Source: Nitrosococcus oceani ATCC 19707 (GTDB lineage: Bacteria; Pseudomonadota; Gammaproteobacteria; Nitrosococcales; Nitrosococcaceae). From it: DNA of 32,000 nucleotides. A program made the position numbers and the translations under genes. Shown in pieces: positions 194-30,435 of the stretch (positions are counted from its first letter, which is position 1; each line of letters begins with the position of its first letter). Where the stretch lies: positions 660,001 through 692,000 of the forward strand of contig NC_007484.1 of the NCBI RefSeq assembly GCF_000012805.1, written 5' to 3'. The notes under the pieces were generated by a model, which saw only the letters and a program-made list of their open reading frames with translations, searched no databases and was not told the DNA's origin.

Positions 194-1740
<1,547 letters not shown>

Positions 1741-1741
1741 G

Positions 1742-3598: not shown

Positions 3599-3623
3599 TT
3601 AGAACGTGCTAGAGAGAATCCCC

Positions 3624-4823
3624 ATGCTGACTGATACCAAGCTTCGCAACCTGAAACCTAAAGACAAACTCTACAAGGTCAATGACCGCGATGGGCTTTA
3701 CGTGGCGGTTACGCCGGCAGGGACAATCTCATTCAGGCACAACTATTCCATCAGCGGTCGCCAGGAGACATTGACGATTGGTCGGTATGGCACTGGTGGC
3801 ATTACGCTCGCTGAAGCTCGCGAACGACTGAGCGAAGCAAAAAAAATGATTACCGCCGGCAAGTCTCCGGCCAGAGAGAAGGCTCGCGACAAGGCGCGGG
3901 TGAAGGATGCTGAAACATTCGGGGCGTGGGCGGAAAAGTGGATGCGTGGTTATCAGATGGCTGATTCCACACGTGACATGCGTAAGTCAGTCTACAACCG
4001 TGAGTTGAAAAAGCGCTTTGGCAATCAAAAATTGTCTGAGATTACCCATGAGGATCTCCGTGCAGTAACTGATTCCATCGTGGAAAGAGGTGCTCCGGCA
4101 ACAGCAGTTCATGCTCGTGAAGTGGTGCTACAGGTCTTTCGTTGGGCGATTGAGCGCGGGCAGAAAGTAGAGAACCCGGCGGAACTGGTTCGCCCTACCA
4201 GTATCGCCAGATTCGAGCCGCGCGATCGGGCATTGAGTCCTGCCGAAATTGGTCTGATGTATCGGTATATGGATCGAGTCGGGACGTCGCCGCAATATAG
4301 AGCCGCGATAAAACTGTTGTTGCTGACCATGGTGAGAAAGTCTGAGCTGTCTAACGCTACCTGGTCGGAAATCAATTTTAGCGAGGCTCTTTGGACTATA
4401 CCGAAAGAGCGCATGAAGCGTAGAAACCCGCACTTAGTATTTCTGTCACGTCAGGCTCTGGACATCTTTATCGCATTGAAGACCTTTGCCGGTGGATCCG
4501 AATTTGTGCTCCCCTCGCGCTATGACTCGGACATACCGATGAGCGCTGCAACCTTGAACCGCGTTCTAGCATTGACGTATCGGGCGGCCCAGAAAGACGG
4601 CAAACAGCTCAGCAAATTCGGCCCGCACGACCTGCGTCGCACGGCCAGCACGCTACTGCACGAGTCCGGGTATAACACGGACTGGATTGAAAAGTGTCTT
4701 GCCCACGAACAGAAAGGTGTGCGGGCGATCTACAACAAAGCAGAGTACCGAGAGCAGCGGGTTGAGATGTTACAAGATTGGGCGGATATGATTGACGAGT
4801 GGACTAACGTGAAGCGGCAGTAA
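3624..4823 (+). CDS. int: P4-like tyrosine integrase (DUF4102-type N-terminal arm-binding domain plus phage integrase catalytic domain)
   Basis: The N-terminus MLTDTKLRNLKPKDKLYKVNDRDGLYVAVTPAG is the classic P4-integrase-family start. The catalytic region contains HDLRRTAST and LAHE...YNKAEY. I prefer the ATG at 3624 to the GTG at 3606. Confidence 0.9.
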   Translation: MLTDTKLRNLKPKDKLYKVNDRDGLYVAVTPAGTISFRHNYSISGRQETLTIGRYGTGGITLAEARERLSEAKKMITAGKSPAREKARDKARVKDAETFGAWAEKWMRGYQMADSTRDMRKSVYNRELKKRFGNQKLSEITHEDLRAVTDSIVERGAPATAVHAREVVLQVFRWAIERGQKVENPAELVRPTSIARFEPRDRALSPAEIGLMYRYMDRVGTSPQYRAAIKLLLLTMVRKSELSNATWSEINFSEALWTIPKERMKRRNPHLVFLSRQALDIFIALKTFAGGSEFVLPSRYDSDIPMSAATLNRVLALTYRAAQKDGKQLSKFGPHDLRRTASTLLHESGYNTDWIEKCLAHEQKGVRAIYNKAEYREQRVEMLQDWADMIDEWTNVKRQ

Positions 4824-9910: not shown

Positions 9911-10657
9911 ATGATGTCCATGACTTCAGATGCAAAGCAATTTTACGAAACCGTAGACACCCATCACCGAGACTCAACGCCCGGGGCCTTGCGGGGTGAA
10001 GTCTGGTTGACGATTCAGACTTACCAGGCTCAGGGCCTTATTCGTGGTCGACGAGCCATCGACGGCAAGCCCGCGATCATTGGACTTATTGGATTCGCAG
10101 ATCGATTGAAGTCGTTATGGCAGGCCATCCGTTTTGACGACCCCTACGCAGACTGGTGGTTACTCAAAGTGGAAGAGGGCATTGCCGATTCCCGAACACA
10201 GCTGCTGACGTTGCAGCAAAGGATGGAGGGGCTTGTTGCGTCAAATGGTGCGCTGGAGTTCGCCATTGCGCAATCGAGCCGGCCACAACGTGTGTCGTTG
10301 CAGTTTGCCAATCCCTATGCCTTTCGGGCTGCGCAATTGTTGGGTCAGTATGACCAGCTGATGTGTACAGACATGACGTTGCATCACTTGGGTATCGACA
10401 TACCCGGCGACCTTGTCGATCAGGTGGCCGGCTGTGGTCGCTGGATACGCCGCGTATTTGCCTTGCCTCAGGGGTACCACTGCCTGGACATTCGTCGTGC
10501 TGATATTCAGAAAGGCACCCCGGTGGCCGTCAAAGCGCGAGAGCGGATGGGGGAGATTCCAGACGACATCCTGTGTGGTAACAGGCTGCCGTCCCTGCGC
10601 CCAGTGGCATTCCGACAGATTGATAGTCGCGCCCCTGTAGTCACAGGTGAGGCGTAA
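9911..10657 (+). CDS. Conserved ICE protein (PFL_4669-like family), function unknown
   Basis: A 248-aa ORF with good coding character. Its placement after the STY4528-like gene matches the remembered backbone order. Confidence 0.55.
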   Translation: MMSMTSDAKQFYETVDTHHRDSTPGALRGEVWLTIQTYQAQGLIRGRRAIDGKPAIIGLIGFADRLKSLWQAIRFDDPYADWWLLKVEEGIADSRTQLLTLQQRMEGLVASNGALEFAIAQSSRPQRVSLQFANPYAFRAAQLLGQYDQLMCTDMTLHHLGIDIPGDLVDQVAGCGRWIRRVFALPQGYHCLDIRRADIQKGTPVAVKARERMGEIPDDILCGNRLPSLRPVAFRQIDSRAPVVTGEA

Positions 10658-11076: not shown

Positions 11077-12168
11077 ATGACAGAATTAACCGACGAAAAA
11101 ACCACCGACCAGAGACAAGCCTCGATTGCTGACGATCCGATGCAGGTAGTCCAGGTGGGGCTGGATGACGGCTACGCCTATACCAAGGTGGCACTACCCG
11201 ACGGACGCCTCGTATCCGTGCCGTCGCGGGCGCGTATGGGTGCGGCAGGTGTGACCTGGATTCGGGATGTGGAGCAACGGATTTTCGAGTATGAAACCGC
11301 TGGTACGGTGTACTCCGTTGGTGCGGTCGATGGTGAGCCGACGCAGTTTGATGAATACCCAGGCTCTGCACTCAACCGTGTCATTGTCCAGCACGCGTTA
11401 CAAGAGGCGGGCTTGTCGGGCCGCTCTCTTCATTTGGTGACAGGATTACCAGTCGCAGCATTTTACCGTGGCGATGGTCAGCAACGGCGACAGGCGATTC
11501 AAACCAAACGGGATGGCCTCAAGTTAACGGTCGAGCCTGTCGTTGCCAAGAAGTCATCGACAAGGCAAGCGCTCAAAGCCAGCATCGCCTTTCACGAGGT
11601 TATTCCAGAGGCGCTTGCGGCATGGTACGACTTCGTCATTGTGACCTTGGATGATGGCGTAACGCTGGATGCTGACCGACTCAATGCGCCTATTGCTATC
11701 GTTGATATCGGCGGCCGAACCACAGATTACGTGGTCGTGCAGGACCAGGGTGTTGTCCACGGTTCCTCAGGTTCCCTGAACAGGGGGATGCTCGATCTGA
11801 AACTTCGCGTCGCCAACCTGATCCAGGAACGGTTCGATCTCCACGAACTCGGTGAGCAAATCATCAGCCGGGCCGTTGATACCAATCGGTTGCGGCTGCA
11901 TGGCAAAGATCACGATGTATCCGACATGGTGATGAATGCCAAGCGTGAGCTGGTAGAGCGACTTTACGCAGAAACCCGCCGAAAACTTGGGCTTGGTGTT
12001 GAGCTGGATCGCATCCTTTTTGTTGGTGGCGGCAGTGCGGCACTGTCATCAGATATCGCCGACTGGTTCCCCAATCAAACCATTGCTGATCATGCAGCAT
12101 TCGCCAATGCGCGGGGTATGCTCAAGTACCTACAGTTTGTCTGTGATGATGCTTCGAAGGAGCGATAA
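11077..12168 (+). CDS. ParM/StbA-like actin-fold ATPase
   Basis: Actin-fold phosphate and adenosine motifs are present: VGLDDGYAYTKV (phosphate 1), IVDIGGRTTDYVVV (phosphate 2) and LFVGGGSAAL (adenosine). Confidence 0.8.
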   Translation: MTELTDEKTTDQRQASIADDPMQVVQVGLDDGYAYTKVALPDGRLVSVPSRARMGAAGVTWIRDVEQRIFEYETAGTVYSVGAVDGEPTQFDEYPGSALNRVIVQHALQEAGLSGRSLHLVTGLPVAAFYRGDGQQRRQAIQTKRDGLKLTVEPVVAKKSSTRQALKASIAFHEVIPEALAAWYDFVIVTLDDGVTLDADRLNAPIAIVDIGGRTTDYVVVQDQGVVHGSSGSLNRGMLDLKLRVANLIQERFDLHELGEQIISRAVDTNRLRLHGKDHDVSDMVMNAKRELVERLYAETRRKLGLGVELDRILFVGGGSAALSSDIADWFPNQTIADHAAFANARGMLKYLQFVCDDASKER

Positions 12169-14773: not shown

Positions 14774-15640
14774 ATGAGAGACCTGAACTACCAATTGAAG
14801 CAAATGTGTCAGCGCAACCGGGACGGCAGCTACAGTACCCAGGCCAACCGGTCGCGTATGCTTAACCAGATCGCCAATCAGTTGCAGGAGATGGGGTATC
14901 GGCGCATGACCACCCGATCTCTCAAGCCGAAGCATGTGGACGCGCTTGTCCGGCGCTGGCTCAGTGAGGGTATGGCACCCGGTACCATAAAAAACCGCAT
15001 GAATTGTCTGCGGTGGTGGGCCGCTAAAGTGGATCGGCGTAACGTTATCGCACGATCTAATGAGTTTTACGGCATCCCCGATCGACAATTCGTCAGTAAC
15101 GATTCCAAGGCGGTTGCTGTTGACGACAATGCACTGTCTAGCGTCAAAGACGACCATGTGCGCATGAGCCTGGAACTTCAGCGCGCCTTCGGTTTGCGCA
15201 GGGAAGAGGCAATCAAATTCATGCCGGGCTATGCCGATCAAGGCGATCATGTTCGCCTGAAGGCCTCCTGGACGAAAGGAGGCAAGGCGCGCGCTGTGCC
15301 GGTGCTCACCCAGGAACAGCGTGCCGTCTTGAATCGTGCCCACCGTTTGGTGGGATCCGGTTCCCTGATTCCTCCGCAGAAAAAATATATTCAGCAGCTG
15401 CGTACCTACGAACGCCATACCACTCAGGCAGGTTTGTCGAAACTGCATGGCCTGCGCCATGCGTATGCTCAGTCACGCTATCAGGCGTTAACGGGTTGGG
15501 CCTGTCCTGCGGCGCGTGGGCCGGCCGCTAAGAGTCTGAGTGCTGAGCAACGACAGCAGGACCATCAGGCACGACTCACCATCAGTCGCGAATTAGGCCA
15601 TGTTCGCGAACAGATCAGCGCCGTTTACCTAGGGCGATAA
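14774..15640 (+). CDS. Tyrosine-recombinase (integrase-domain) protein of the ICE backbone
   Basis: C-terminal catalytic-type residues are present: LRREEA, HGLRHAYAQ, and the terminal ISAVYLGR with a candidate catalytic Tyr. It is 288 aa with no arm-binding N-domain. Confidence 0.7.
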   Translation: MRDLNYQLKQMCQRNRDGSYSTQANRSRMLNQIANQLQEMGYRRMTTRSLKPKHVDALVRRWLSEGMAPGTIKNRMNCLRWWAAKVDRRNVIARSNEFYGIPDRQFVSNDSKAVAVDDNALSSVKDDHVRMSLELQRAFGLRREEAIKFMPGYADQGDHVRLKASWTKGGKARAVPVLTQEQRAVLNRAHRLVGSGSLIPPQKKYIQQLRTYERHTTQAGLSKLHGLRHAYAQSRYQALTGWACPAARGPAAKSLSAEQRQQDHQARLTISRELGHVREQISAVYLGR

Positions 15641-17862: not shown

Positions 17863-18430
17863 ACAACGAATGTTGTCTGTCCTCGTGCCCGCATTGTTAC
17901 TCGCGATAGGCGGGGGTTCTTCCGCATTGGCGGATCTGACAGTGATTTATGACAGCGGCCAAACCCAACCTTTGTCGCCGTTACTTGGTCCGTTCCAGGC
18001 GGATGAAACGCCGTCGACCGATCCTGCCAAAGCAAGCGAACCGAATCCATCGTCCAAATCTATGCTCGGCCCAGCAGTATTGAGTAACTTGTTGCCGTTG
18101 CACTCACCCGGATTGGAGGTCGGCGATAGTGGTGACACTCCACTGAATCCCGAGGTGCTGACGCGGCTCGCGCAGGGTAATCCGCGCCCGTTTTTTTTGA
18201 TCGGATCGGACGCGGTTTCTTTGGAGTGGCTGGCCTACCACCGGGACACACTCAGGAGCTTGGGTGCGGTGGGCATGTTGGTGCAGGCCGATACCGAGGC
18301 CGACGTTAGACGGGTTGCCGAGGTGGCGCAGGGCTTATCCATCACCCTGGGTTCAGGAAGTGATCTGGCCGCGGCGCTGGGCATCGATCGCTACCCAGTG
18401 TTGATTACGCCTGACGGTATTCGGCAGTGA
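17849..18430 (+). CDS. Secreted conserved ICE protein (PFL_4695-like)
   Basis: It has a signal peptide (LLLAIGGGSSALA), overlaps both neighbours (coupled), and is in the expected backbone position. The start may be TTG 17849 or ATG 17870. Confidence 0.5.
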   Translation: MSIRKQRMLSVLVPALLLAIGGGSSALADLTVIYDSGQTQPLSPLLGPFQADETPSTDPAKASEPNPSSKSMLGPAVLSNLLPLHSPGLEVGDSGDTPLNPEVLTRLAQGNPRPFFLIGSDAVSLEWLAYHRDTLRSLGAVGMLVQADTEADVRRVAEVAQGLSITLGSGSDLAAALGIDRYPVLITPDGIRQ

Positions 18431-20568
18431 GCACGCATCCGATGGAGGCGTTGTTGCGGCCTCCCGTCGAGTTGTGGTCCACGGCCACCGCGTTCGCGGC
18501 GGGTACACTGGCCTGGTTGGCGCCCTGGGCCTTGATGATGCCACCGGGTATCGCGATGGCCACCAGTCTGACCTTTTTCGGTTTTGGCATGTGGCGTGGC
18601 CGTCAGGCCTGGCGGGTACTGCGTTACCAGCACCACATGAAGCGACTGCCGAAGTATCAAGTGCGGGCCAATCAGATCCCCGTCAGTCGCCATAAGCTGT
18701 TTTTGGGCAAAGGCTTTCGCTGGACCCAGCAACACACTCAGCGTCTTCGCGATACCCTGAAGCCCGAGGTGCAGAGTTACGTTCAGCCGGGCACGCTCTA
18801 CCAGTGGGCGCGACAAAAGGAGGTAGCCTGGGAATCGATTCCAATCCTGTCTTTACTGGCCAAAGCCCTGCGCAGTCGATCCCGTTGGAACCCGCTGGCA
18901 CCATTACCTGCCGTCGGCGGCAAACCCGCACTGCACGCGGTTGATCCTCATGAACAGCCCGTGTGGATGGATCTGGGCGAAAGGGTTGGACACACGCTGG
19001 TGTTGGGTACCACGCGCGTCGGTAAGACACGCCTGGCGGAACTGCTGATTACCCAGGACATCCGCCGCGGTGATGTCGTCATTGTCTTCGATCCGAAAGG
19101 GGATGCCGATCTGTTGCGTCGCATCTACGCCGAGGCAAAGCGGGCCGGTCGTCTGGACGATTTTTATCTGTTTCATCTCGGCTTCCCCGAATTGTCCGCA
19201 CGCTACAACGCCATCGGTAATTTCTCCCGCATCACCGAGGTTGCGACCCGTATCGCCAATCAGTTGCCCAATGAGGGCAACTCCGCTGCCTTCAAAGAGT
19301 TCGCCTGGCGTTTCGTCAACATCATTGCGCGATCGCTGGTGGCCTTGAAGCGCCGACCGGACTACCAACAGATCCGCCGTTACATCAACGATATAGAGCC
19401 CTTGTTTGTGGAGTATGCCGGCCATTGTGCCCGCGTTGCCGGCATCGATGCCTGGGCGTCCCTGGTTGAAGAACGCGCAGGGGATATCAAAGAGCGCAAC
19501 CTGTCCAATGCACTGCGTGGCCGATCGATGGAAGCCATCGCCTGTATGCGGTTGTTGCAGGAGAGGGCCATTTATGACCCCGTCCTGGATGGCCTTATTT
19601 CCGCATTCAAATACGACAAGACCTATTTCGACAAGATTGTGAGTTCCGTTGGCCCGCTGATGGAAAAACTGACCACCGGCACCATCGCCGCGCTGATATC
19701 GCCGGATTACCAGGATGAACACGATGCCAGGCCGATCTTTGAATGGATGGATGTGGTGCGCCGCAAGGGCATCGTTTATGTGGGACTGGATGCTCTCACC
19801 GATACGACGGTGGCCAGCGCGGTCGGGAATTCCATGTTTGCAGATTTGGTGTCTGTGGCGGGGCATATCTACAAGCACGGCATCGCGGCTAATGGCGCTG
19901 ATGCGTCAGAATCAGAACGCCAGCGGCATTCGATTCCCACCATCTCCCTGCATGCGGATGAGTTCAACGAGTTGATCGGTGATGAATTCGTGCCGCTGTT
20001 GAACAAGGCGGGCGGGGCAGGCTTTCAGGTCACGGCCTACACCCAGACCTGGTCGGACGTGGAAGCGCGTATCGGCAGTCGGGCCAAAGCGGGGCAGGTA
20101 GCCGGTAACTTCAACACAATGCTGATGCTACGAGTGAAGGAGCTGGATACCGCTGCGATGCTGACCGAGCAGTTGCCGCGGGTTGAAGTCTTCACCCTGA
20201 TGAGTGTCTCCGGCGTCGATGATTCATCGGATCCCGGTTCCGGGGTCGACTTCAAATCCCGCAACGAAGACCGGATCAGTGTTTCGGAAGTGCCGATGCT
20301 GACCGCTGCCGATATGGTCACGCTGCCCAAGGGGCAGGCCTTCGCGCTGTTGGAAGGTGGCCAGCTCTGGAAAATCCGTATCCCGCTGCCGGATAACCGT
20401 GAGGATGCGGCCATGCCGAACGATTTTGAGGAGATGGCCGATGCCATGCGTCGCAGCTACATCACCAACGATCACTGGTATCGGGTCACTGACCATTGGT
20501 GGCACGCCGTCTCCGAGGCGACGGTCGAGTCTGCAGATTCTTCTCCAAATTCTGAGGGGCAAAACTAA
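18427..20568 (+). CDS. traD: Type IV coupling protein TraD (conjugative coupling ATPase)
   Basis: Two N-terminal TM helices, Walker A GTTRVGKT, a Walker B-like motif (SLHADEFNE), and 713 aa in length. Confidence 0.9.
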   Translation: MSTHPMEALLRPPVELWSTATAFAAGTLAWLAPWALMMPPGIAMATSLTFFGFGMWRGRQAWRVLRYQHHMKRLPKYQVRANQIPVSRHKLFLGKGFRWTQQHTQRLRDTLKPEVQSYVQPGTLYQWARQKEVAWESIPILSLLAKALRSRSRWNPLAPLPAVGGKPALHAVDPHEQPVWMDLGERVGHTLVLGTTRVGKTRLAELLITQDIRRGDVVIVFDPKGDADLLRRIYAEAKRAGRLDDFYLFHLGFPELSARYNAIGNFSRITEVATRIANQLPNEGNSAAFKEFAWRFVNIIARSLVALKRRPDYQQIRRYINDIEPLFVEYAGHCARVAGIDAWASLVEERAGDIKERNLSNALRGRSMEAIACMRLLQERAIYDPVLDGLISAFKYDKTYFDKIVSSVGPLMEKLTTGTIAALISPDYQDEHDARPIFEWMDVVRRKGIVYVGLDALTDTTVASAVGNSMFADLVSVAGHIYKHGIAANGADASESERQRHSIPTISLHADEFNELIGDEFVPLLNKAGGAGFQVTAYTQTWSDVEARIGSRAKAGQVAGNFNTMLMLRVKELDTAAMLTEQLPRVEVFTLMSVSGVDDSSDPGSGVDFKSRNEDRISVSEVPMLTAADMVTLPKGQAFALLEGGQLWKIRIPLPDNREDAAMPNDFEEMADAMRRSYITNDHWYRVTDHWWHAVSEATVESADSSPNSEGQN

Positions 20569-20570
20569 TT

Positions 20571-21302
20571 ATGGCGGAACCGACGGATCCCCGCCGACCC
20601 GTCACGCGCCCCGGCACATTCTCCCGGGTTTTGACAGGGCTAGCCCAGTGTCTTAAGTGGCTGTTTCTCTCACTGATATTTTCCGTTCTGATTGAATGGA
20701 TCGGCATGGTGTTCTGGTGGGAGGAGCAGGGGCTGGATCACAGCCGACAGATGCTGGTGAACGAGTTGCAGTTCCTCGGCGCAGACTTTCACCGCAGCTG
20801 GTTAACGGCTCATCCCATGCAATTCGCCAGTGATTTGTCCGACCGGTTTTACCATATCGCCTTTGAGTGGACCGGTATTGTCGATCTTATCCAGTGGATT
20901 ACGCCGGCCCCGGGCCTTGAAGAGTCCGGCGTGCGCCCGGTGCTGCACCGGTTTTACCGGCCAGTTGCTGACTATGTCCTGGCCGGTATGCAAATCACGC
21001 AGGTTTTTGCGGTACGTCTCGCCATCCTGACGCTGGCGACGCCGGTATTTGGACTGTTCACCCTGGTGGCACTGGTTGATGGTCTGGTGCGGCGGGACCT
21101 GCGGCGTTGGGGCGGCGGCAGGGAAAGCTCTTTCGTCTATCACTATGCCAAGAAAGCCGCCATACCGCTGATCATCATGGCCTGGGTGCTGTACCTGGCG
21201 CTACCGTTCAGTTTGCACCCGTCCTGGATCATCTTGCCGTTCGCTCTGGCCTTTGCCTTTGCTGTGACCATCACGGCCAGTACCTTCAAAAAGTATCTCT
21301 GA
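20571..21302 (+). CDS. Integral membrane ICE protein (PFL_4697-like)
   Basis: A multi-TM protein that starts 3 nt after the traD stop. It occupies the backbone position after traD. Confidence 0.6.
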   Translation: MAEPTDPRRPVTRPGTFSRVLTGLAQCLKWLFLSLIFSVLIEWIGMVFWWEEQGLDHSRQMLVNELQFLGADFHRSWLTAHPMQFASDLSDRFYHIAFEWTGIVDLIQWITPAPGLEESGVRPVLHRFYRPVADYVLAGMQITQVFAVRLAILTLATPVFGLFTLVALVDGLVRRDLRRWGGGRESSFVYHYAKKAAIPLIIMAWVLYLALPFSLHPSWIILPFALAFAFAVTITASTFKKYL

Positions 21303-21386
21303 TACAGTTGACTGTACCATTACAGTTTGCTAGACTGCATTTAAGCACTGTAAAGATACAGTATAAGTGCTGTTAAGGAGATAATC
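21303..21386. promoter_or_regulatory. Candidate autoregulatory operator/promoter of the Xre-RES operon
   Basis: TACAGT occurs at 21303-21308, 21321-21326 and 21357-21362. ACTGTA occurs at 21311-21316 and 21347-21352, and a degenerate ACTGCA at 21334-21339. The RBS AAGGAG is at 21375-21380. Confidence 0.45.
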
Positions 21387-21788
21387 ATGATCGCTCAAGC
21401 CGAACAACTGCTGCAACGTGGTTCCAGTGTCACCAGTTCACTGCTCCCGGCGATTTTCGCTATTTTCAGCCAGTGGCGCCTGACCGGTGCCCAGCAGATG
21501 ACCCTGTTGGGGCTCAGCAACGAGAAGACTCTCTATAACTGGAAGAGCCAGCCGGAAAAGGCCAAGTTAACCAGGGACCTACTGGAACGGGCCAGCTATA
21601 TCCTGGGGATCTACAAATCCCTGCAGATCCTGTTGCCCGATCAGGCGCTTGCCGATCAGTGGCTGGCTACCCCCAACGACAACCCGTTATTCAATGGCAC
21701 GGCCCCGCTGGAGCGGTTGCTGGCCGGACAGGTGGTCGATCTGGCCGTGGTCAGGAATTTCCTTGATGCGGAGCGGGGTGGCTGGTGA
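21387..21788 (+). CDS. Xre/MbcA/ParS-type antitoxin (DUF2384 C-terminal toxin-binding domain)
   Basis: A 133-aa protein directly upstream of a RES-domain gene and overlapping it (GTGA). The conserved C-terminal W...P...L.G..P...L pattern is present (WLATPNDNPLFNGTAPLERL). Confidence 0.8.
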   Translation: MIAQAEQLLQRGSSVTSSLLPAIFAIFSQWRLTGAQQMTLLGLSNEKTLYNWKSQPEKAKLTRDLLERASYILGIYKSLQILLPDQALADQWLATPNDNPLFNGTAPLERLLAGQVVDLAVVRNFLDAERGGW

Positions 21789-22477
21789 TCGATATCGATA
21801 CGCTACCGGGTAGCGAGACAAATGAACCGGTTTATCGGGTCATTCTGTCACGCTATCCGCAGATCCACCTGTTTGAGCGAGTCTCCAATCCACAGGATTG
21901 GGACGTGCTCTATGCCGTGGAGTCTCTAACCAACCCCAGGTTACGGGATGAGGTGGGTGATATTCGCCTGGTGCCACCGGAAGACCGGGTGTATGGCGAT
22001 GGCGCGTCCTGGATCATGGCGGCTTTCACTCACCCGCCGGTGGATGGACGTGGTGGCCGCTTCAATCGGGATTTCGGCATCTACTATTGCGCCGCGGATG
22101 AGGCGGTCGCCATCGCCGAATCATCCTTTCATCGGGCACGATTCCTACGTGAATCCAGAATCGACAAGACCACCCAGGAGATGCGCGTTATCCGCGCGCA
22201 GCTGGGGCCGACAACCCTCCAGGATGTGCGGCACCTGGTCGGAGATGCCATCTACGATCCCGACGACTACGGCGAGGCACAGACACTTGGCGATACGCTT
22301 CGGGCTGCCAATAGCTTCGGCATTCACTACCAAAGCGTGAGAGCGAAAGGGGAGTGCTACGGGGTGATGCGACCCAAGGCGCTCACCGATGCCATCCACT
22401 GGCGCTATCTGCGTTACCACTATGAACAGGGGACAGTAGTGAATGTTGAATCCCTGGACGGCAGTGGCAAGAGGTGA
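21785..22477 (+). CDS. RES-domain toxin (NAD+-targeting family)
   Basis: The R-E-S triad contexts are GGRFN (Arg), AIAES (Glu) and HYQSVR (Ser). At 230 aa it has the typical size, and it is paired with the DUF2384 antitoxin. Confidence 0.85.
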   Translation: MIDIDTLPGSETNEPVYRVILSRYPQIHLFERVSNPQDWDVLYAVESLTNPRLRDEVGDIRLVPPEDRVYGDGASWIMAAFTHPPVDGRGGRFNRDFGIYYCAADEAVAIAESSFHRARFLRESRIDKTTQEMRVIRAQLGPTTLQDVRHLVGDAIYDPDDYGEAQTLGDTLRAANSFGIHYQSVRAKGECYGVMRPKALTDAIHWRYLRYHYEQGTVVNVESLDGSGKR

Positions 22478-23100
22478 TGGCAATGTATAAAGAGCTGCTG
22501 TGGATCTTCACCCAACTACCGGACGATTACATCGTCCTCGATACCGAAACCACCGGCCTGCCTGACGAAAACGGACTGCCTGATATCGTGACACTTGGCA
22601 TCACCGTGGTGAGCAATCGAGAGATTGCGGAATCCGTCGAGTTCAAGACAAGACCACAAAAACGCATTTCAGAAGAGGCACAGTCGATACACGGCATTAC
22701 CAACAAACAGGCTGCTGCATTTGACTCCTTTGATTCCCAGTGGCAGCAGATTTCCGAATATCTGAAGCATCAACTTATCGTCATTCATAACGCCAGTTTT
22801 GACTGGCCGATCCTGCTTGATCATGTTTTACGACACGGATTGGCAATGCCGGAAATTCAAGGCGTATTTTGTAGTCAGAAAGCGGCTATTCCCTGGGCAC
22901 AGGCAATGGATCTCCCATGTAGCCACAGAGGTCCTTCGTTAGACACATTAACGAAAGCACTTGGGGTCGAAGATCTCCGAGTCAAAGAAGATGGGTTACA
23001 TGGGGCGAAGATTGATAGCCGGCAGTTGGCTCAGGTTGTACAGGTGATAAGTCGAAATGAAAATATGGAATGGGTCTTAATCGTGAATCACAGGGGCTAG
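22477..23100 (+). CDS. DEDDh 3'-5' exonuclease (DnaQ/epsilon-like)
   Basis: Exo I is VLDTETTGL, Exo II is HNASFDWPIL, and Exo III is HGAKIDS (H-x4-D). The start overlaps the RES stop (TGATG), indicating translational coupling. The alternative GTG at 22474 would give a 4-nt overlap. Confidence 0.85.
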   Translation: MAMYKELLWIFTQLPDDYIVLDTETTGLPDENGLPDIVTLGITVVSNREIAESVEFKTRPQKRISEEAQSIHGITNKQAAAFDSFDSQWQQISEYLKHQLIVIHNASFDWPILLDHVLRHGLAMPEIQGVFCSQKAAIPWAQAMDLPCSHRGPSLDTLTKALGVEDLRVKEDGLHGAKIDSRQLAQVVQVISRNENMEWVLIVNHRG

Positions 23101-23239
23101 AGATGTGCATATGCGTCCGGCTACAGATGCGGTCTCTCGATTTTCCAACTTGGGATGACCAAGTTGAAGAGAAAACAGGAATCAACCCAATCATGGTAAA
23201 CAACTGAAGCGGGCAACTACCGAAGGTTTCAAGATAGCG

Positions 23240-23589
23240 ATGACACAATCACCTGAACTCGCAGGCGGCGAAGGTTTCACCTTTGAGGGCGATGCGGCTG
23301 CATTCTATCTCGTCGCGCTACTAGCCGAAGCTTATGCTCCCGGCATCGATGATCGAACCGTTGTTCGAGTTTCTGTTCAGCAACGTGATTTCGGTGAACC
23401 GCTGGATGATGTGATCGTCGACTTTGAAGATGCCTCAAAGAACCCCGCTCGACTTAGCCTCCAGGTAAAGCGTTCGCTCACAATCAGCAGTGCAAAAACG
23501 AACAAAGACTTCCACGAAGTAATCCGCGACAGTTGGGCAACCCTCAACAAGTCAGACTTCCGCTTCAACGTCGACCGCTACGGGGCCGC
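23240..23589 (+). pseudogene. 5' fragment of the IS-split giant gene: PD-(D/E)xK (Cap4/Mrr-like) nuclease-type N-domain
   Basis: The translation MTQSPELAGGEGFTFEGDAAAFYLVALL...EPLDDVIVDFED...LSLQVKRSL shows a D...(D/E)...QxK arrangement (D codons from 23405, QVK at 23462-23470). The track ORF continues to 23620 only because it reads into the IS left end before hitting a stop. Confidence 0.7.
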
Positions 23590-23662
23590 CGTAAGCTTCC
23601 CCCTATCTGACACAGGCTGAAGTTGGAGTTTTCTGGCAGGATATTACTGCGAGGAGACGAAG

Positions 23663-23929
23663 ATGAAACGAAGCCGATTTACCGAAAGCCAGATCGTATC
23701 GATTCTGAAAGAGGCAGATGCCGGAGCAAAGATTAAGGATCTTTGCCGCAAACACGGCATCAGCGATGCGACTTACTACAACTGGAAGGCGAAGTACGGT
23801 GGCATGAGTACATCGGACTTGCGACGGCTGAAGGAGACGGAGGCTGAGTTGTCGCAGTACAAGAAAATGTATGCGGAGCTCGCCCACGAGAATTACGCAC
23901 TGAAGGATCTCATTGAGAAAAAGCTCTGA
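23663..23929 (+). CDS. IS3-family transposase OrfA (HTH)
   Basis: The sequence MKRSRFTESQIVSILKEADAGAKIKDLCRKHGISDATYYNWKAKYGGM... is the classic IS3/IS407-group OrfA. It has a C-terminal leucine-zipper-like region. An A-run AAAAAG at 23918-23923 lies near the end. Confidence 0.9.
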   Translation: MKRSRFTESQIVSILKEADAGAKIKDLCRKHGISDATYYNWKAKYGGMSTSDLRRLKETEAELSQYKKMYAELAHENYALKDLIEKKL

Positions 23930-23964
23930 GGCCACTGGATAAGCGCGAAGCGGCGCAGCACCTG

Positions 23965-24783
23965 GTGGCCAAACACGAGTTGAGCAAGACGAAAGCTTGC
24001 GCGGCCGTACAACTGTCGCGCTCGAGCTGGTATCGGCAGCCGTCGCAACAGGCGGTACGAGATCAGCCTGTCATCGATGCGCTCAACACGATGCTCAAGA
24101 AGTACCCACGCTGGGGCTTTTGGATGTGCTATGACCGAATGCGACTGGACGGCCATGCCTGGAATCACAAGCGAGTTTATCGAGTGTACACAGCGATGAA
24201 GCTGAATCTTCCTCGGCGCAAGAAGCGCCGGCTACCGCAGCGTGTGCAGCAGCCGATGGTGGTTGAGGCCCGAGCCAATGCTGAATGGTCTTTGGACTTT
24301 ATGAGCGATGCGCTGTACCACGGTCGCCGCTTCCGCACGCTGAACGTGCTTGATGAGGGCGTCCGTGAAGCGCTGGATATCGTCATTGATACATCCATCC
24401 CTGGCGCTCGCGTTGTGCGGACCTTGGATCGTCTCATCGAATGGCGCGGCAAGCCGGATGCAATACGGGTGGACAACGGGCCAGAGTACATCTCCCAGGT
24501 GTTCTCGGAATGGTGCGAGAAGCACGGCATCAAACTGAACTACATCCAGCCAGGGAAACCGAACCAGAACGCGTACATCGAACGCTTCAACCGCACGTAT
24601 CGACATGAGGTGCTGAATGCCTACGTGTTCGAATCGTTACGGCAAGTCAGAGAAATCACGCGAGCATGGATCATCGAATACAACGAAGAACGACCGCACG
24701 ACAGCTTGGGAAAAATACCGCCTGCCATGTTCCGACGGCAGGTCGAAAACGCCAGAAACTCTACTTTAGAACTGTGTCATTGA
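23965..24783 (+). CDS. IS3-family transposase OrfB (DDE catalytic domain), probably expressed as an OrfAB fusion by -1 frameshift
   Basis: It is in the -1 frame relative to orfA. The DDE contexts are WSLDFMSD, IRVDNGPEY and NAYIERFNRTYRHE, followed by the conserved YNEERPHDSLG. Confidence 0.9.
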   Translation: MAKHELSKTKACAAVQLSRSSWYRQPSQQAVRDQPVIDALNTMLKKYPRWGFWMCYDRMRLDGHAWNHKRVYRVYTAMKLNLPRRKKRRLPQRVQQPMVVEARANAEWSLDFMSDALYHGRRFRTLNVLDEGVREALDIVIDTSIPGARVVRTLDRLIEWRGKPDAIRVDNGPEYISQVFSEWCEKHGIKLNYIQPGKPNQNAYIERFNRTYRHEVLNAYVFESLRQVREITRAWIIEYNEERPHDSLGKIPPAMFRRQVENARNSTLELCH

Positions 24784-24797
24784 CGGGGAAGCTTACG

Positions 24798-27700
24798 CCG
24801 CAGTTGGTACGGTTACCCCTGCCAAAGAAAGGGCACTAAAGACCCTTTGCGATTGGGCGCGCGAAAGCCTGACGGCTGACCATTTCCACGCTCGATTTGC
24901 CAAGGGCGGCAGCGCCAGTGCAGAAATCAAAACGGTCAAGAACGACGTCGTTACTTTACTGGAAGCGGTGAAGGGGGCGCCGTGCACGAATGAAGAAGAG
25001 CATCAGTTACTTGCACATTTCGTGCTCATACAGTTCGACTTCCTTCGCGAAGGTGCCACTGATCCCCCTGATGCCATTAATCGTGTTCGGGATTGCCTAG
25101 CGCCAGATGACACAGCCAAGGCACCGCTTGTCTGGTCGCGAGTAGTTCAGCTAGCCCGTTCATCAGCTGGAAAAGCTGGTCAGTTTGATCGCATACGACT
25201 TGTTCGCTCGATTTCACCTGTCGCACGCCTACGCGGCGCGACGTCATTACGTCTCAACCTGGACAAGTTGACAGAGCTCGCGAAGAGCTATGCGAACCTA
25301 ATTCCGGACGATATTGGGGGAACAAAGCTCGACCGCATCTCGCTCCTTGAGAGCATTGATGCAAAACTCGCCACAGCTCGTGCCGTCCAGGTGCGCGGCC
25401 TGCCAGGAAGTGGCAAATCAGTCGTGGTGAGGCGAGCGGTACAGCGCGCGTTAGAACACGGGCCGACTCTCTTCCTCAAAGCCGAACAGCTCGAAGGGAC
25501 CAGCTGGATCAGCTATGCGAACTCACAGGGTTTATCGGGTGCTCATCTAGAGCAACTTCTCGTAGAGATCGGTGCTGCCGGTACCCCCGTACTCTTTGTC
25601 GATGCGATCGATCGCATTGACAAAGAACACCAGCCCATCATCGTCGATGTGATTCACACCATTGTGGAATCACCACTGCTTGATAACTGGCGCGTAGTCG
25701 TTTCCCTTCGTGACACCGGCATTGAAATGCTTCGTAATTGGTTGGGTGAATTCCTCGATACCCTTAATGTCGAGACGCTAAGCGTTGGTCAGCTGAGCGA
25801 CGATGAGGCTGAGTCGCTCGCAAAGGCCAAGCCACACCTGAGATCGCTCCTGTTTGGATCCGCTCAGGTGCGAGAAATCGTCCGACGGCCCTTTTTCGCG
25901 AAAGTGCTGAACCAGAGTTACATGGTCGACTCCAGCAGTTCGACATTCGCCCCCCAATCTGAAGTCGGTTTGATTGAGAATTGGTGGCGGAGGGGTGGCT
26001 ACAATGAGACGGGTCAAAACGCGTTAGAACGGCAGCGCGCACTGCTCGACTTGGCAAGTGTGCGTGCCCGCCAGCTTAGTCAGCCGATTGCCCTTAGCCA
26101 GCTAACATCCGTCGCACACATAGATGGTCTAAGATCAGACGGCATACTCCAAAATGCCCGTGAAGGGGTTTCCGTCCGCTTTGCACACGATATCTTCTTC
26201 GAATGGGCCTTCTTCCATGTCCTAGCCGATCGCGGACTCCAATGGGTGGAGGTTATCAAGGCCTGCGGCGAGCCACCGGCAGTAGCCCGCGTCGTCGAGC
26301 TGACTTCGCAATGGGAATATGCGCAGGGAACAAACTGGCCAGCGCACCTTGCCCAAACGGAGAGTTCGGATCTTAGGTCACAATGGCTGCGAGCGTGGCT
26401 GGTCGGTCCTCTTGGGACTGCGAGATTCGATGATGATGAAGACCAATTCGCGACGGCCGTCATTGCCAACGACTTTCGACTTTTCAGGAAGACGCTCGTC
26501 TGGTTTCAGGCTGAGAAGACCACCCCGAATGAGAGTATCCTTACTGGTGGTCTCCCACAGGAACAACGCCAACGGTTCGCTGATCTTCTCGGATGGCCTT
26601 CCGACTTCTCCGCGTGGCGTCGCCTCATCAATTTTATACTACAGCGCATTGCAGATATTCCGCAGCGGCTTTATCCAGAGATCGTCTCCATCTTCGAGGT
26701 CTGGCAGAATGCCTTGGCCGACCTCCGCAACCCGACGTCTCATGCACTTCTGCAACAATGCGCTGTCTGGCTGGCCGCCATCGACGCGATCAGTACTGCC
26801 GATAAGCCTGATGAGAACTCTGCTTATTGGGGGGCGGTTCCCGGCTTGGGTGCTCTCAGAAAATCGCTGGGCCAGCTCCTCTTAAGATCGTCGAGAGCCG
26901 AGCCATCACTTTCAGCCGACTATTTGCGACGGGTCGCCAACTCGGAGCGCATCCGAGACGATGCATTTCATGACATCATCGCCTACTCACCCGTCCTTGC
27001 CCAATCGCTACCTCAGTCTGTGGTCGAGCTTTCGCTAGCGTTCCTGCTTGGGGAGCTTCCGGATGAGCAAGTCGCCCGAGAAAAACAGGAACTTCATGAT
27101 ACGGCCGAGTGGCGCAAAGCAGTTTTAGCAAAGCCGGAAGCCGAACAGACGCGTAAAGAAAAAATGGCACTTTCGGGCGGATTCTATCTGCGAACCGTCG
27201 GCGATTTCAGCTACCACGACTGGGAAAGGCTTTCGATCCACGACGACCACCGAAACTTCTGGCCGCCTTCGCCACTTCGAGAGCCCTTTCACTCGCTTTT
27301 CCAATCATCTCCTGACCATGCACTGCGGCTCCTTCGAGAACTCTGTAATCATGCGATGACCGCATGGCGACAGCTACATCATCACTCACACGACCGTGGG
27401 GGCACCCCTATACCGCTCGAACTTACGTTTCCCTGGGGTACCCAAATTTTCTGGGGCACCGATCGAGAGTATCTTTGGTTTCGGTCGACGTGGGCACCTA
27501 AAGCCATCGGCTGCGCATTCATGGCGCTCGAGGAGTGGTGCTTCACCGAGCTTGAGCAAAGCCGGACTGTTGACGAGCTGATCCAGCAAATCGTCGAGGG
27601 GAACGAGTGCATCGCCATCCTAGGAATGGCGTCTATGCTCGCTCTCCACACCGAGTGGGTGTCTGAAACAACATTGCCGCTCTTCACCTCGCAGCGCCTG

Positions 27701-29836
27701 TTGGCCGCTGACCATAATCGAATGGCGCAAGACCTTTCATCATCGACGAACCTGATCGGTTTCACGAGTAGTACTGACAAACCCCACATTGAGGCAATCC
27801 AGATGGCAAATGCTAGGACTGTCCGTAAGACACAGCTTAGTTGGATGGTACCCAGGTTTGTCTTTGCCACGGAGCCATTCCGCGATCGAGCACGCGAAGC
27901 GATCCTCAATTTCAAGAACGATCTGCCCTTCCAGTACGAAGAACACCGCGACATTCCGGAGGCACGGGAGTACCTCACAAAGCAGGCCCTCGAATATGCC
28001 GAGTTGGCGGATCCGGAAAACTATCAGGCCTACCGCACCGAAGAGGGTTCGGACCAAATAGCGATTGTCCACGTCAGCCCATCTGCTGCTCAACCTGAAA
28101 ATATCGCCAGAGCCGAAGAGGCTAATAAGTACCTCAGGCAGACCGGCCTCTGGACATGGGCATCCAAATCATTCGAAGAGACGACATTGAACGACACTTA
28201 TACGATCGAGGATGCCATCGTATTGTCCAAGGAAGCGGACGCCAGCGACTTATTCGAACACCCGAACAGCGAGAATGAAGAAGAGCAGTTGGGGATGCGT
28301 CGAGGTGCAGTCGCCGCCACAGCAGCCATAGCACTTAACTTTAGAGAAGGGTGTACACACGAAGACCTTGAGTGGGCTCGTGGTGTCCTAGGACGCGCAA
28401 TCCGTCTGCCAGAAAAGTTCGAATCGATGTGGTCCCCTGGTTCCGTCGTCCCGTGGCACCAGGGGATCTATGTGGCACGGGGGCTCGCAGCGGATCTCCG
28501 GGAAGGTACAGCAGCGCGCAGCACGGCCAATGACCTCCTCGGGCTAATCGCGCACCCACTTGAAATTGTTGCGTTGACCGCACTCGAAGAGGCCTGCAAG
28601 CTTTGGCCTAATGACTCGAAGTTGACTTGGGCCGCGCTGATATTGGCGTTTTCACTCTGCCACGTTCCTCCGCGGCCGCGTGACCAGCCCCGTCAACACG
28701 GTGAGGCACTCCATACATCAAATGAAGCACAAGCCGCTGTCAACGCGGCGCTTGCGTTCTATGAGCACGGAAGCGAATGGGCGCCTCTCCCTTTACCGCC
28801 TCCAGCCTGGGTGAAGGTCGAACCTGAGAAGGGCCGGCGTGGGTATCAAAGATATGAAGATTACGACTTGGATGATGCAACCGACGCTGCTGAAGTATGG
28901 GGTGAACCGGATGTCTTCTGGCACTCAAAGCAGGCTGCAGAAGTCCTTCAGCGCATCCCCTTGGACGAGGTTCTAAACAGCAGTGCAAAGAGCGTGCTTC
29001 TCGACTTCCTTGCCAGTGTTCTCGACTGGACCAACCAGAAGAATGCACCACCGTGGGTGAAGCCCGGACGCCGCGATCGGTCGGCGACCCAAATCTTTGA
29101 GTGGACGCATACGCTCGGATCAAGGCTGGGATACATGGCTGGCCTTATGCCGCTTGCCGACTTTCAGGCGCGCTTTCTTGATCCGATTTTGGACCTCGAA
29201 GGCGACAATTGCTGGTCTCTTCTTTCGCCATTCACGAGCACCTTTGTCTGCGCTTACGTGTACGATGCGCCGGTCGCTCCAGTCGATACAGTTGCGATAC
29301 TCGATCTCTGTCTCGCGCGGCTCCTCCAGGACCGTACCTTCAAGCGTGACACCTACCGGAGCGGAGAATTTTCAGGCTTCGATCAACCCGAGCTTGTTCG
29401 TACGTTGATGTTTGTCTCAGTCGAACGCGCCGATTTGGCCGCTCGCTACGTGAATGGCGACTGGTCCGAAATCAACCGCATCCTGCCCTTGATTGATCGA
29501 TTTATTCGCGCTGGCGGATGGGCTGCTTCAGTGATGGACTCATTCTTGACGCTCTGTGAACGAGCAAGAGCTAACTACCCGGCCGAAGCCTTCGCAGAGC
29601 AAGTGCTCGCAATTATCGGCGACGGTCCCGACAGCCTGAAAGGTTGGCATGGAACATTCATCCCAGCACGCATTGCAGAGCTGGTGCAACACTTTGCACA
29701 TCGTGACGCGCCGATGACGCTGGCCCTGGCACAGAAGTTCCTGCGAATCCTTGACATGTTAGTCGACATGGGAGATCGGCGAAGTGCCGCGCTGCAGCTT
29801 GGTGAATCGTTCCGCGAGATTAGTGCGCTCTCTTAG
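24798..29836 (+). pseudogene. 3' fragment of the IS-split giant gene: P-loop STAND-like NTPase plus a C-terminal region of roughly 1,350 aa with no recognised motif
   Basis: The frame is open from the IS right end. Walker A GLPGSGKS is at 25397-25420 and Walker B VLFVDAID at 25589-25612, followed by VVVSLRD. I recognise no other motif in the remaining region. The track ORF 24968-29836 uses an internal GTG as its start. Confidence 0.75.
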
Positions 29837-30132
29837 CTCGATGAGCATGCATTACTGGCTTTATCAGATCTGAGTTTAGTTCTGACGGACGAAGTTGTGA
29901 GAGTGATCGGTAACCTGTAATAAATAGACAAGGCCGTTAGTGTTCAGAATAACGTTTGACGATCACTAGTCAGATCTTTCGTGCGTGAAAATCGAGTGTC
30001 CACATTTTTAAAGCGTGGCAGACGGTGTGTGCGGGCTAGCAAACCACCCCACCTACCGAATAGATTTCCCATCGTCCACCGCCACTAATTCTCGCACTAT
30101 GCCCCGTAACAACTCACGGGAGCAGCAGTGCC

Positions 30133-30435
30133 ATGAAACGCCAATTCTGGCCATCAACTTTTCTGATTCTAGGCTTGTGCGTCGCGCCGGCGGCGTTCGC
30201 TGATGCAGACGCGGAGCGTGAGGCGCTGGCGAAAATCATCCATGAGCTCAATGCCCTCGAGACGCTAATCAATCGCGCTGAGGTCAATGCTGATCGGGAT
30301 TCCCGTATCCGATTTCGTTATGACTGGCTGCGTCAGGATCTGAAGCAGATCAAGGACGGCATCCAGTCACACATCGATTCCCCCCGCGCGCAGCCTCGCT
30401 CATTTCCGCCATTGCGCGGCGATTACCGTCGATAG
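30133..30435 (+). CDS. RAQPRD-family ICE protein (secreted)
   Basis: Signal peptide MKRQFWPSTFLILGLCVAPAAFA. The family-defining motif RAQPR lies near the C-terminus (DSPRAQPRSFPPL). Confidence 0.8.
   Translation: MKRQFWPSTFLILGLCVAPAAFADADAEREALAKIIHELNALETLINRAEVNADRDSRIRFRYDWLRQDLKQIKDGIQSHIDSPRAQPRSFPPLRGDYRR

Follow-up and report, generated by a model that had tools for sequence, protein, structure and literature searches.

A probable two-layered cargo hotspot with an interrupted, Avs4-related gene in an integrative and conjugative element of Nitrosococcus oceani

The genomic islands PAGI-2 and PAGI-3 as well as LESGI-3 contain a variable region, GI-Hotspot 8, which is bounded by traD and a gene of the RAQPRD family. 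More than 40,000 instances of this hotspot have been described, 29.3% of them with known defense systems, e.g., CBASS, Gabija, Lamassu, restriction-modification and others, and it has likewise been reported in Serratia, Salmonella, Klebsiella and Xanthomonas (PMC12629846). Here we describe the corresponding region of an integrative and conjugative element (ICE) of Nitrosococcus oceani, which lies in the stretch of 32,000 nt that has been analyzed (the window). The region is very probably the traD/DUF4400-to-RAQPRD cargo hotspot of an ICE of the PFGI-1/pKLC102/ICEclc type and comprises two layers, a proximal one with a resident Xre-RES-DEDDh operon and a distal slot with fast turnover, which holds an Avs4-related gene broken by an insertion sequence (IS).

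The gene order traD, DUF4400, slot, RAQPRD in the window agrees with the definition of GI-Hotspot 8, the content varies over 50 relatives, and on raw matches the slots contain defense genes (QatA, GajA/Old, AriA, PtuA, CBASS parts, Avs3a, PifA, Tmn, LmuB). The elements belong to the same ICE superfamily and share the traD/RAQPRD bounds as well as the many defense systems with the published hotspot, whereby the family models in common (TIGR01690, TraD) and the description in the paper form the basis of the assignment. However, there are also differences: the hosts are marine Gammaproteobacteria (Nitrosococcus, Halieaceae, Porticoccaceae, Alcanivorax) and not Pseudomonas, the slot is abutted by the DUF4400 gene rather than by traD itself, and the present clade has the Xre-RES-DEDDh operon as a resident at the proximal edge. 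The hotspot itself is not new, and the N. oceani region is a new instance of a published hotspot. GI-Hotspot 8, described in Pseudomonas genomic islands, is hereby extended to ICEs from marine Gammaproteobacteria, among them an ammonia oxidizer, and is shown to be layered, with a slowly evolving toxin-antitoxin-exonuclease operon on the proximal side and a rapidly exchanged defense slot on the distal side, the border of which is sharp to the nucleotide.

The hotspot in related elements

The ICE of N. oceani is integrated beside guaA. The genes guaB and guaA are located at 280-3316 and are directly followed by a tyrosine integrase gene (3606-4823), so that the integrase is found at one end, beside the chromosomal target, as in ICEs of the PFGI-1/pKLC102/ICEclc type; no tRNA gene was found within the window. 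Membership in this type, with its MPF-G transfer module, is further indicated by the signature proteins, which occur in the conserved order TraD (18427-20568), TIGR03747/DUF4400, RAQPRD (TIGR01690), DUF3262, DUF2976 and DUF3487, the latter three being encoded by transfer genes 3' of the RAQPRD gene. The curated cut-offs of TIGR03747 and TIGR01690 are both passed, and farther along the same contig (L086) the gene order continues with DUF2895, DUF3438, TraC_F_IV and TraU.

The DUF4400 protein was used to fetch 80 related ICE loci. Their sources include Halieaceae, Porticoccaceae, Alcanivorax, Sedimenticola and Thiodiazotropha, and the identity of the DUF4400 proteins ranges from 59 to 98%. Both anchors are present in 50 of the 80 loci, with a gap between the DUF4400 and RAQPRD genes of 772 to 9,692 nt, while in further loci RAQPRD lies farther away than the 10 kb fetched. 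The gaps contain 188 open reading frames (ORFs) in addition to the Xre, RES and DEDDh genes (the trio), and these ORFs form 163 clusters. An initial annotation of the window had proposed that the junction acts as a cargo hotspot and is filled with defense genes. Both proposals were borne out, the former by the variable content of the 50 relatives with both anchors, the latter by the recognized defense families that PADLOC and Pfam models detected across the relatives. The question of whether the flanking genes are adjacent in any relative can also be answered, since they are near-adjacent in four loci (L071, L073, L061 and L068, with gaps of 772-1,225 nt).

Pfam and PADLOC matches among 98 slot proteins include QatA, GajA/Old, AriA, PtuA, SMODS/ThiF/patatin/DncV, nSTAND3 and KAP NTPases. 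Single slots carry a full-length Avs3a (L014, 3,050 bits), PifA (L038, 866 bits), Tiamat-like (Tmn-type) genes (L020 and L024), an LmuB-like gene (L026), PDC-S06 (L008) and another STAND protein (L072), and the repertoire spans Gabija-, PARIS-, Lamassu- and CBASS-type genes. Slot genes with a match to RVT_1 were considered as retrons, but the case that was examined (L017) turned out to be a group II intron. A number of large slot genes lack a match to PADLOC models, namely a gene for a protein of 1,443 aa without any Pfam match (L045, 14728-19056), a gene for a TPR protein of 1,088 aa (L053, 8184-11447), and a gene for a PIN-TPR-GreABC-type protein of 1,267 aa that is followed by a gene for a partner of 642 aa (L027, 12746-18471). 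These large genes are inexpensive candidates for uncharacterized defense genes.

The distal slot and its interrupted gene

The slot with fast turnover extends from about 23101 to 30040 in the window. It had been described as containing a giant NTPase gene and an IS as separate items, which needs to be corrected, because the empty site, the restored reading frame and full-length homologs reveal a single gene that has been interrupted by the IS. The limits of the IS and the target duplication were deduced from the empty site in Pseudohalioglobus lutimaris (L018), which reads TACGGGGCCGCAGTTGG, i.e., TACGGG-GCCGC-AGTTGG, and from other intact copies. The duplication comprises 4 bp (CCGC, at 23586-23589 and 24798-24801), although a reading with 5 bp (GCCGC) is also possible. 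The termini are perfect inverted repeats of 13 nt (CGTAAGCTTCCCC) within imperfect arms of 45 nt. With orfA and orfB, a length of about 1.2 kb, terminal inverted repeats and a target duplication within the range of 3-5 bp, the element has the features of the IS3 family. IS3-family elements usually end in TG...CA, whereas the termini are CG...CG in this case. With regard to the programmed -1 frameshift that joins orfA and orfB in the IS3 family, inspection by eye showed a GAAAAAG run close to where orfA ends.

Excision of positions 23590-24801 (1,212 nt = 3 x 404) joins ORF126 in frame to ORF1622 and yields a protein of 1,794 aa without internal stop codons. The giant gene thus begins with ORF126 (23240-23620), which had been overlooked. 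The IS has inserted at codon 117/118, inside the predicted nuclease domain, and parts the catalytic residues from the NTPase and the sensor. The split copy is presumably inactive, and the lesson for the annotation is that ORF126 and ORF1622 of N. oceani are one pseudogene.

The restored protein has the tripartite layout of Avs/AVAST proteins, i.e., an effector, a STAND NTPase with a Walker A motif (GLPGSGKS) and, C-terminally, a long sensor region (about 1,200 aa); in addition to the motif, hints of AAA_16, NACHT and nSTAND5 were found for the NTPase. Alignments over 100% of the length, with identities of 76-92%, were obtained for more than 100 database proteins of about 1,794 aa, which occur in Nitrosomonas, Desulfurispirillum, Salinisphaera, Pseudomonas, Burkholderia, Halomonas and Acidobacteriota. 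A library-wide search revealed that the family consists of 1,516 clusters at 50% identity, mostly with proteins of 1,720-1,820 aa and the same layout. When a profile of 34 diverse members was compared with the Protein Data Bank (PDB), it matched Avs4 (8dgf_A, E = 8.5e-34) collinearly over profile positions 276-781 (NTPase) and 924-1328 (a large part of the sensor).

The protein thus resembles Avs4 (AVAST type 4) in the succession of a STAND NTPase and a long helical sensor, with about 900 collinear residues, and in being a single-gene system with an N-terminal nuclease effector. In contrast to Avs4, it is far under the curated threshold, the direct similarity is weak (phmmer E = 0.027), and the effector is of the Cap4/DUF4297-like type, which is also found in Avs3 (8dgc) and LmuA. 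Judged by its sequence, the giant protein is to be regarded as a relative of Avs4, not as a member of that family.

Pfam models matched neither residues 1-290 nor the C-terminal 1,100 residues, and a profile of the N-terminus retrieved nothing significant from the PDB sequences. The N-terminal domain has been identified by fold comparison only. An AF2 model of the N-terminal 235 residues was generated from a diverse alignment of 40 sequences and has a pLDDT of 93.3; a model of the same N-terminus from 13 near-identical sequences was unusable (pLDDT 48.6, about 30 over residues 1-122). The best Foldseek matches of the former model are nucleases of Lamassu LmuA, CBASS Cap4, Hachiman HamA, Avs3 and HerA-DUF4297, the eleven top matches having a probability of 1.00 and E-values between 1.5e-5 and 7.5e-4, and 8dgf is not among the structural matches. 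Residues D56, D57, Q75 and K77 are invariant in the family and E16 is nearly so, which results in a PD-(D/E)xK signature. The N-terminal effector is predicted by the model to be a Cap4-like PD-(D/E)xK nuclease. It has the fold (residues 1-235) and the E...DD...QxK signature in common with Cap4/LmuA/HamA-type (DUF4297) nucleases, but differs from them in that there is no Pfam match at the sequence level and in its fusion to a STAND NTPase instead of SAVED, SMC-like or helicase partners. The N-terminal fragment (23240-23590) also matches the first 114 of 474 positions of the PADLOC model DUF626_VIII (E = 9.4e-15).

Avs4 itself recognizes the phage portal protein and protects against phages. If the giant protein acts like Avs3 and Avs4, its sensor region would bind a phage protein, the NTPase would then oligomerize, and the Cap4-like nuclease would degrade DNA and abort the infection. 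The 1,794-aa family may represent an uncharacterized clade related to Avs4, with an effector of the Cap4 type and a phage trigger that is new. The size of this Avs4-like/Cap4 family, its striking conservation and its mobility between bacterial classes make an intact copy worth testing. In some metagenomic contigs the stop codon of the giant gene is also the point at which an ORF of 160-164 aa without a Pfam match begins (L003, 5737-6231; L004, 6061-6540); neither the window nor P. lutimaris has this ORF, which may be an optional partner gene.

Several comparisons delimit the unit that has been transferred. A DNA match of 91.8% to Nitrosomonas mobilis (L001-L004) begins 126 nt ahead of the ATG (23114) and ends with the stop codon (29836). 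P. lutimaris contains an intact giant gene, which is 90-96% identical to that of the window, compared to 80-89% for the flanking trio and backbone. Among the loci the same giant gene was found in P. lutimaris only, and apparently also in L019, in which it is cut by the contig end. In N. mobilis and Desulfurispirillum indicum it stands alone amid IS elements and unrelated genes. The higher identity of the cassette than of its flanks and the stand-alone occurrence indicate that the giant gene was acquired separately. The mobile unit is therefore one gene with its leader (23114-29836); its transfer between bacterial classes is recent, and nothing connects the cassette with the Xre-RES-DEDDh operon.

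The cassette is followed by a spacer of 204 nt, which has no match in P. lutimaris, in L001-L005 or in any other locus fetched. Directly behind it, the conserved leader of the RAQPRD operon begins, and the backbone resumes at 30041 and not at 30133, as had been annotated. The consensus of the right border starts with AAACCACCCCACC[C/T]ACCGAATAGATTTCCCATCGT; upstream of it, the loci carry unrelated sequences. The contents of the slot would be swapped when related ICEs recombine via their conserved flanks. The highly conserved border motif AAACCACCCCACCCACCGAATAGATTTCCCATCGT at 30041-30075 is located 92 nt before the ATG of the RAQPRD gene (corresponding positions are, e.g., 16933 in L028 and 19709 in L014) and may be a regulatory site of the transfer operon or a recombination boundary. 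Directly upstream of the right border, the sequence ...GGATTCAA is common to several loci.

The proximal operon and competing readings

The genes of the proximal layer had been named as Xre, RES and a DEDDh exonuclease, and these identities were confirmed by profile matches. Genes for RES-Xre type II toxin-antitoxin systems such as ParST and MbcTA encode an antitoxin with an Xre-like HTH and a MbcA/ParS C-terminal domain upstream of, and overlapping, the RES toxin gene. The gene order, the overlap and scores above the gathering values of PF20432, PF09722 and PF08808 assign the first two genes to this class. In such systems toxicity arises from NAD+ depletion or ADP-ribosylation and is neutralized by the antitoxin. 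The two genes differ from the known systems in having a DEDDh exonuclease gene as a coupled third cistron, and in that the antitoxin is below the threshold of the NCBIfam Xre_ParS subfamily (22 versus 90 bits). Overlaps of 4 nt exist between Xre and RES (21785-21788) and between RES and DEDDh, and the three genes are translationally coupled. The exonuclease is DnaQ-like, with ExoI DxE, ExoII D and ExoIII Hx4D all present, and its catalytic motifs DxE, NASxDW and Hx4D (LDTETTG, NASFDW, HGAKID) are invariant in 31 aligned sequences, i.e., the window protein and 30 homologs. In relatives the identity of the Xre protein is 92-99% and that of the RES protein, where intact, 80-95%.

All three genes are found in the same order at the junction in 33 of the 80 loci, accompanied by many different downstream cargos. 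In about 30 close relatives the DNA homology is unbroken from traD via DUF4400, the intergenic region, Xre and RES to DEDDh; it stops at about 23019-23091 and restarts at exactly 30041. The identity of the trio DNA to the window is 80-87% (87, 83 and 81% in three segments), versus 83% and 85% for the flanking backbone. Since the identity of the trio tracks that of the backbone and the homology is unbroken, the trio is an old resident of the clade rather than recent cargo. It is, however, absent from four close relatives (L009, L010, L011 and L036, with DUF4400 identities of 88-90%), in which the homology breaks exactly at 21303, and only one of 26 distant relatives (DUF4400 identities of 59-73%) has the full trio (L051). 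In this locus the trio is 85-90% identical on a backbone with an identity of 73%, which indicates exchange. Another of the distant relatives (L084) has Xre-RES without DEDDh, located 5 kb downstream, and in L040 merely an Xre-like ORF with 60% identity was found. Thus, as far as can be read from these alignments, Xre-RES-DEDDh seems to be a long-standing resident of the ICE clade, yet not an indispensable part of the backbone. The initial annotation had regarded everything between the anchors as cargo foreign to the backbone, a view against which conservation of the same genes in related ICEs would speak. It holds true for the fast slot, but not for the trio, which is conserved at the junction.

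A second insertion point exists between DUF4400 and Xre, which is occupied by an AbiEi/AbiEii pair in one locus (L045, 10830-12943) and by a group II intron with reverse transcriptase and maturase in two others (L017, 10816-13426, and L015). The AbiE insert is flanked by a duplicated piece of the DUF4400 3'-end, as window positions 20939-21037 and 21159-21302 recur after the insert. In a metagenome-assembled genome (L029, 10817-11919), the Xre and RES DNA is about 90% identical to the window but split into shorter ORFs (tblastn 55% and 70%); this may stem from an error in the assembly, or the toxin-antitoxin pair may have decayed while the DEDDh gene was kept.

An own operator and promoter had been assigned to the operon. 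The intergenic region indeed contains a promoter-like sequence, TTGACT-17-TAGACT at 21308-21336, and ACAGT/ACTGT palindromes, but promoter-like sites in the region are not more frequent than in shuffled sequence, and the scans for terminators and promoters did not exceed what is expected from shuffling. As in the RES-Xre family, Xre would bind a palindromic operator, autoregulate its gene and neutralize the RES toxin. Loss of the ICE or infection would free RES, and Xre-RES would act as an addiction or abortive-infection module that stabilizes the ICE. It is conceivable, albeit rather doubtful, that Xre-RES-DEDDh forms one three-component unit, in which a catalytically intact DEDDh protein modulates RES or, alternatively, has invading DNA, transferred DNA or nucleotide signals as its target in defense or anti-defense. 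In that case, protection of the ICE during or after transfer would be the reason why the unit is fixed at the hotspot's proximal edge. No relevant publication on a RES-Xre-exonuclease module was found in a literature search, and a search for DEDDh homologs returned close ICE-borne copies only and thus gave no answer on the trio outside of the ICE clade.

The layered organization has to be weighed against other explanations. The initial annotation viewed the whole 8.8 kb with Xre-RES, the exonuclease, the NTPase and the IS as one co-acquired island, the genes of which may cooperate in defense or exclusion. Such a view is favored by the fact that every gene is on the same strand between two backbone operons, with the overlaps within the trio, and that P. 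lutimaris has both the trio and the giant gene, but it is very improbable, because 31 other loci pair the trio with different downstream cargo, and the giant gene exists without the trio in N. mobilis and D. indicum. In addition, P. lutimaris and the window are more similar in the giant gene than in the trio, and the spacer is unrelated; these unequal identities together with the unrelated spacer indicate that the parts have different histories. No evidence was found that the genes of the module work together, with the giant gene being alone elsewhere and the trio occurring with varied cargo. It is also unlikely that, conversely, Xre-RES-DEDDh is ordinary backbone for the processing or entry of conjugative DNA and the hotspot begins after DEDDh. 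The continuous homology and parallel divergence in 33 loci, the invariant exonuclease motifs and the position of the operon directly behind the operon of the coupling protein would fit. However, the trio is missing from the four close relatives with the break at 21303 and from all but one of the 26 distant ones, the exception has a trio that is more similar than its backbone, other elements have been inserted between DUF4400 and Xre, and RES-Xre is a known toxin-antitoxin type without a transfer function.

Several observations count against a layered hotspot with a broken, Avs4-related defense gene. Recombination between the flanks is deduced only from mosaic identities and the sharp border, and part of the cargo is unrelated to defense, as RND and cation-efflux genes are also present in slots, and as the inspected one of two RVT_1 matches among the slot proteins is an intron. 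The giant protein scores 108.5 bits with the NCBIfam model of Avs4 (NF041815; residues 119-581 of ORF1622), compared to a cut-off of 1,500 bits for equivalog membership, and the 73.5 bits obtained with the PADLOC model of Avs4 cover the NTPase part only. For the nuclease domain the TM-scores of Foldseek are moderate (0.42-0.48, rmsd 6-7 A), the anti-phage role proposed for the Avs4-like clade is drawn from analogy, and the explanation gives no role to the DEDDh gene. Furthermore, an outward promoter could still drive the synthesis of a truncated product of 1,622 aa, and the same disrupted allele is present in three data sets. The split gene might thus still be functional, either via expression of ORF1622 from an IS-borne promoter as a STAND protein without nuclease or via reassembly of the fragments, and the 3' part is indeed an intact frame of 1,678 codons without further lesions. 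This is nevertheless improbable, because the 3' fragment lacks E16, D56, D57, Q75 and K77, the cut lies within a predicted beta-strand (residues 113-120), the promoter scan found no promoter-like site at the right end of the IS, and the three data sets may stem from one strain. A resident operon followed by a fast-turnover slot with a disrupted gene is, therefore, the preferred explanation.

Features of the window and neighboring genes

The coordinates of the hotspot and its anchors are summarized in Table 1. The non-coding edges had been described as AT-richer, and this was verified, as both have a lower GC content than the backbone (0.575). In contrast, GC content, GC3 and skew do not mark off the cargo from the backbone. 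The GC content of the ICE genes is 0.53-0.585, only the DEDDh gene being lower (0.483), and that of the N. oceani genome is 50%.

Table 1. Features of the hotspot region (positions in the window)
Feature	Position	Strand	Evidence
DUF4400/TIGR03747 ICE membrane protein; left anchor, final gene of the traD operon	20571-21302	+	Pfam 239.8 bits; NCBIfam 305.8 bits (cut-off 138.5)
AT-rich intergenic region; likely Xre operator/promoter, secondary hotspot breakpoint	21303-21386		GC 0.357
Xre-type antitoxin; HTH and C-terminal toxin-binding domain	21387-21788	+	PF20432 43.9 bits, PF09722 37.8 bits, both above cut-offs
RES-domain toxin	21785-22477	+	PF08808 104.3 bits
DEDDh 3'-5' exonuclease; third gene of the operon	22474-23100	+	PF00929 60.7 bits; PADLOC DEDDh 86.5 bits
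Upstream region travelling with the giant gene; left end of the single-gene cassette	23114-23239		DNA match to Nitrosomonas mobilis starts at 23114
5' fragment of the giant gene, codons 1-117, reads on as ORF126 to 23620; predicted catalytic core of the nuclease	23240-23589	+	Restored frame open
IS of the IS3 family, 1,208 bp	23590-24797	+	NF033516 transpos_IS3 224.1 bits (cut-off 160); PF01527, PF00665, PF13683
orfA of the IS (HTH_Tnp_1)	23663-23929	+	PF01527 84.6 bits
orfB of the IS (rve DDE)	23965-24783	+	NF033516 224.1 bits
3' part of the giant gene, listed as ORF1622 from GTG 24968; predicted rest of the nuclease, STAND NTPase, sensor	24802-29836	+	Full-length homologs; Avs4 profile matches
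Unique spacer between cassette and backbone, 204 nt	29837-30040		GC 0.451
Conserved leader of the RAQPRD operon; right hotspot border, begins with AAACCACCCCACCTACCGAATAGATTTCCCATCGT	30041-30132		Same border nucleotide in about 30 loci
RAQPRD-family ICE protein; right anchor	30133-30435	+	PF09686 114.8 bits; TIGR01690 92.2 bits (cut-off 50)

Upstream in the ICE, genes for an AcaB-like regulator (9911-10657) and a ParM-like actin (11077-12168) are located, and a second integrase-like gene (Phage_int_SAM_2/Integrase_1, 14774-15640) precedes the first gene of the transfer operon by 116 nt. Outside of the window, downstream on the same contig, a gene for a NERD and Zn-ribbon (Top1-type) protein is present on the minus strand between the TraC (VirB4-like) and DUF1525/TraU genes (L086, 22670-23461). 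It probably marks a further cargo slot of the same ICE and resembles the traC/traU-flanked hotspots that have been described for PAPI-1.

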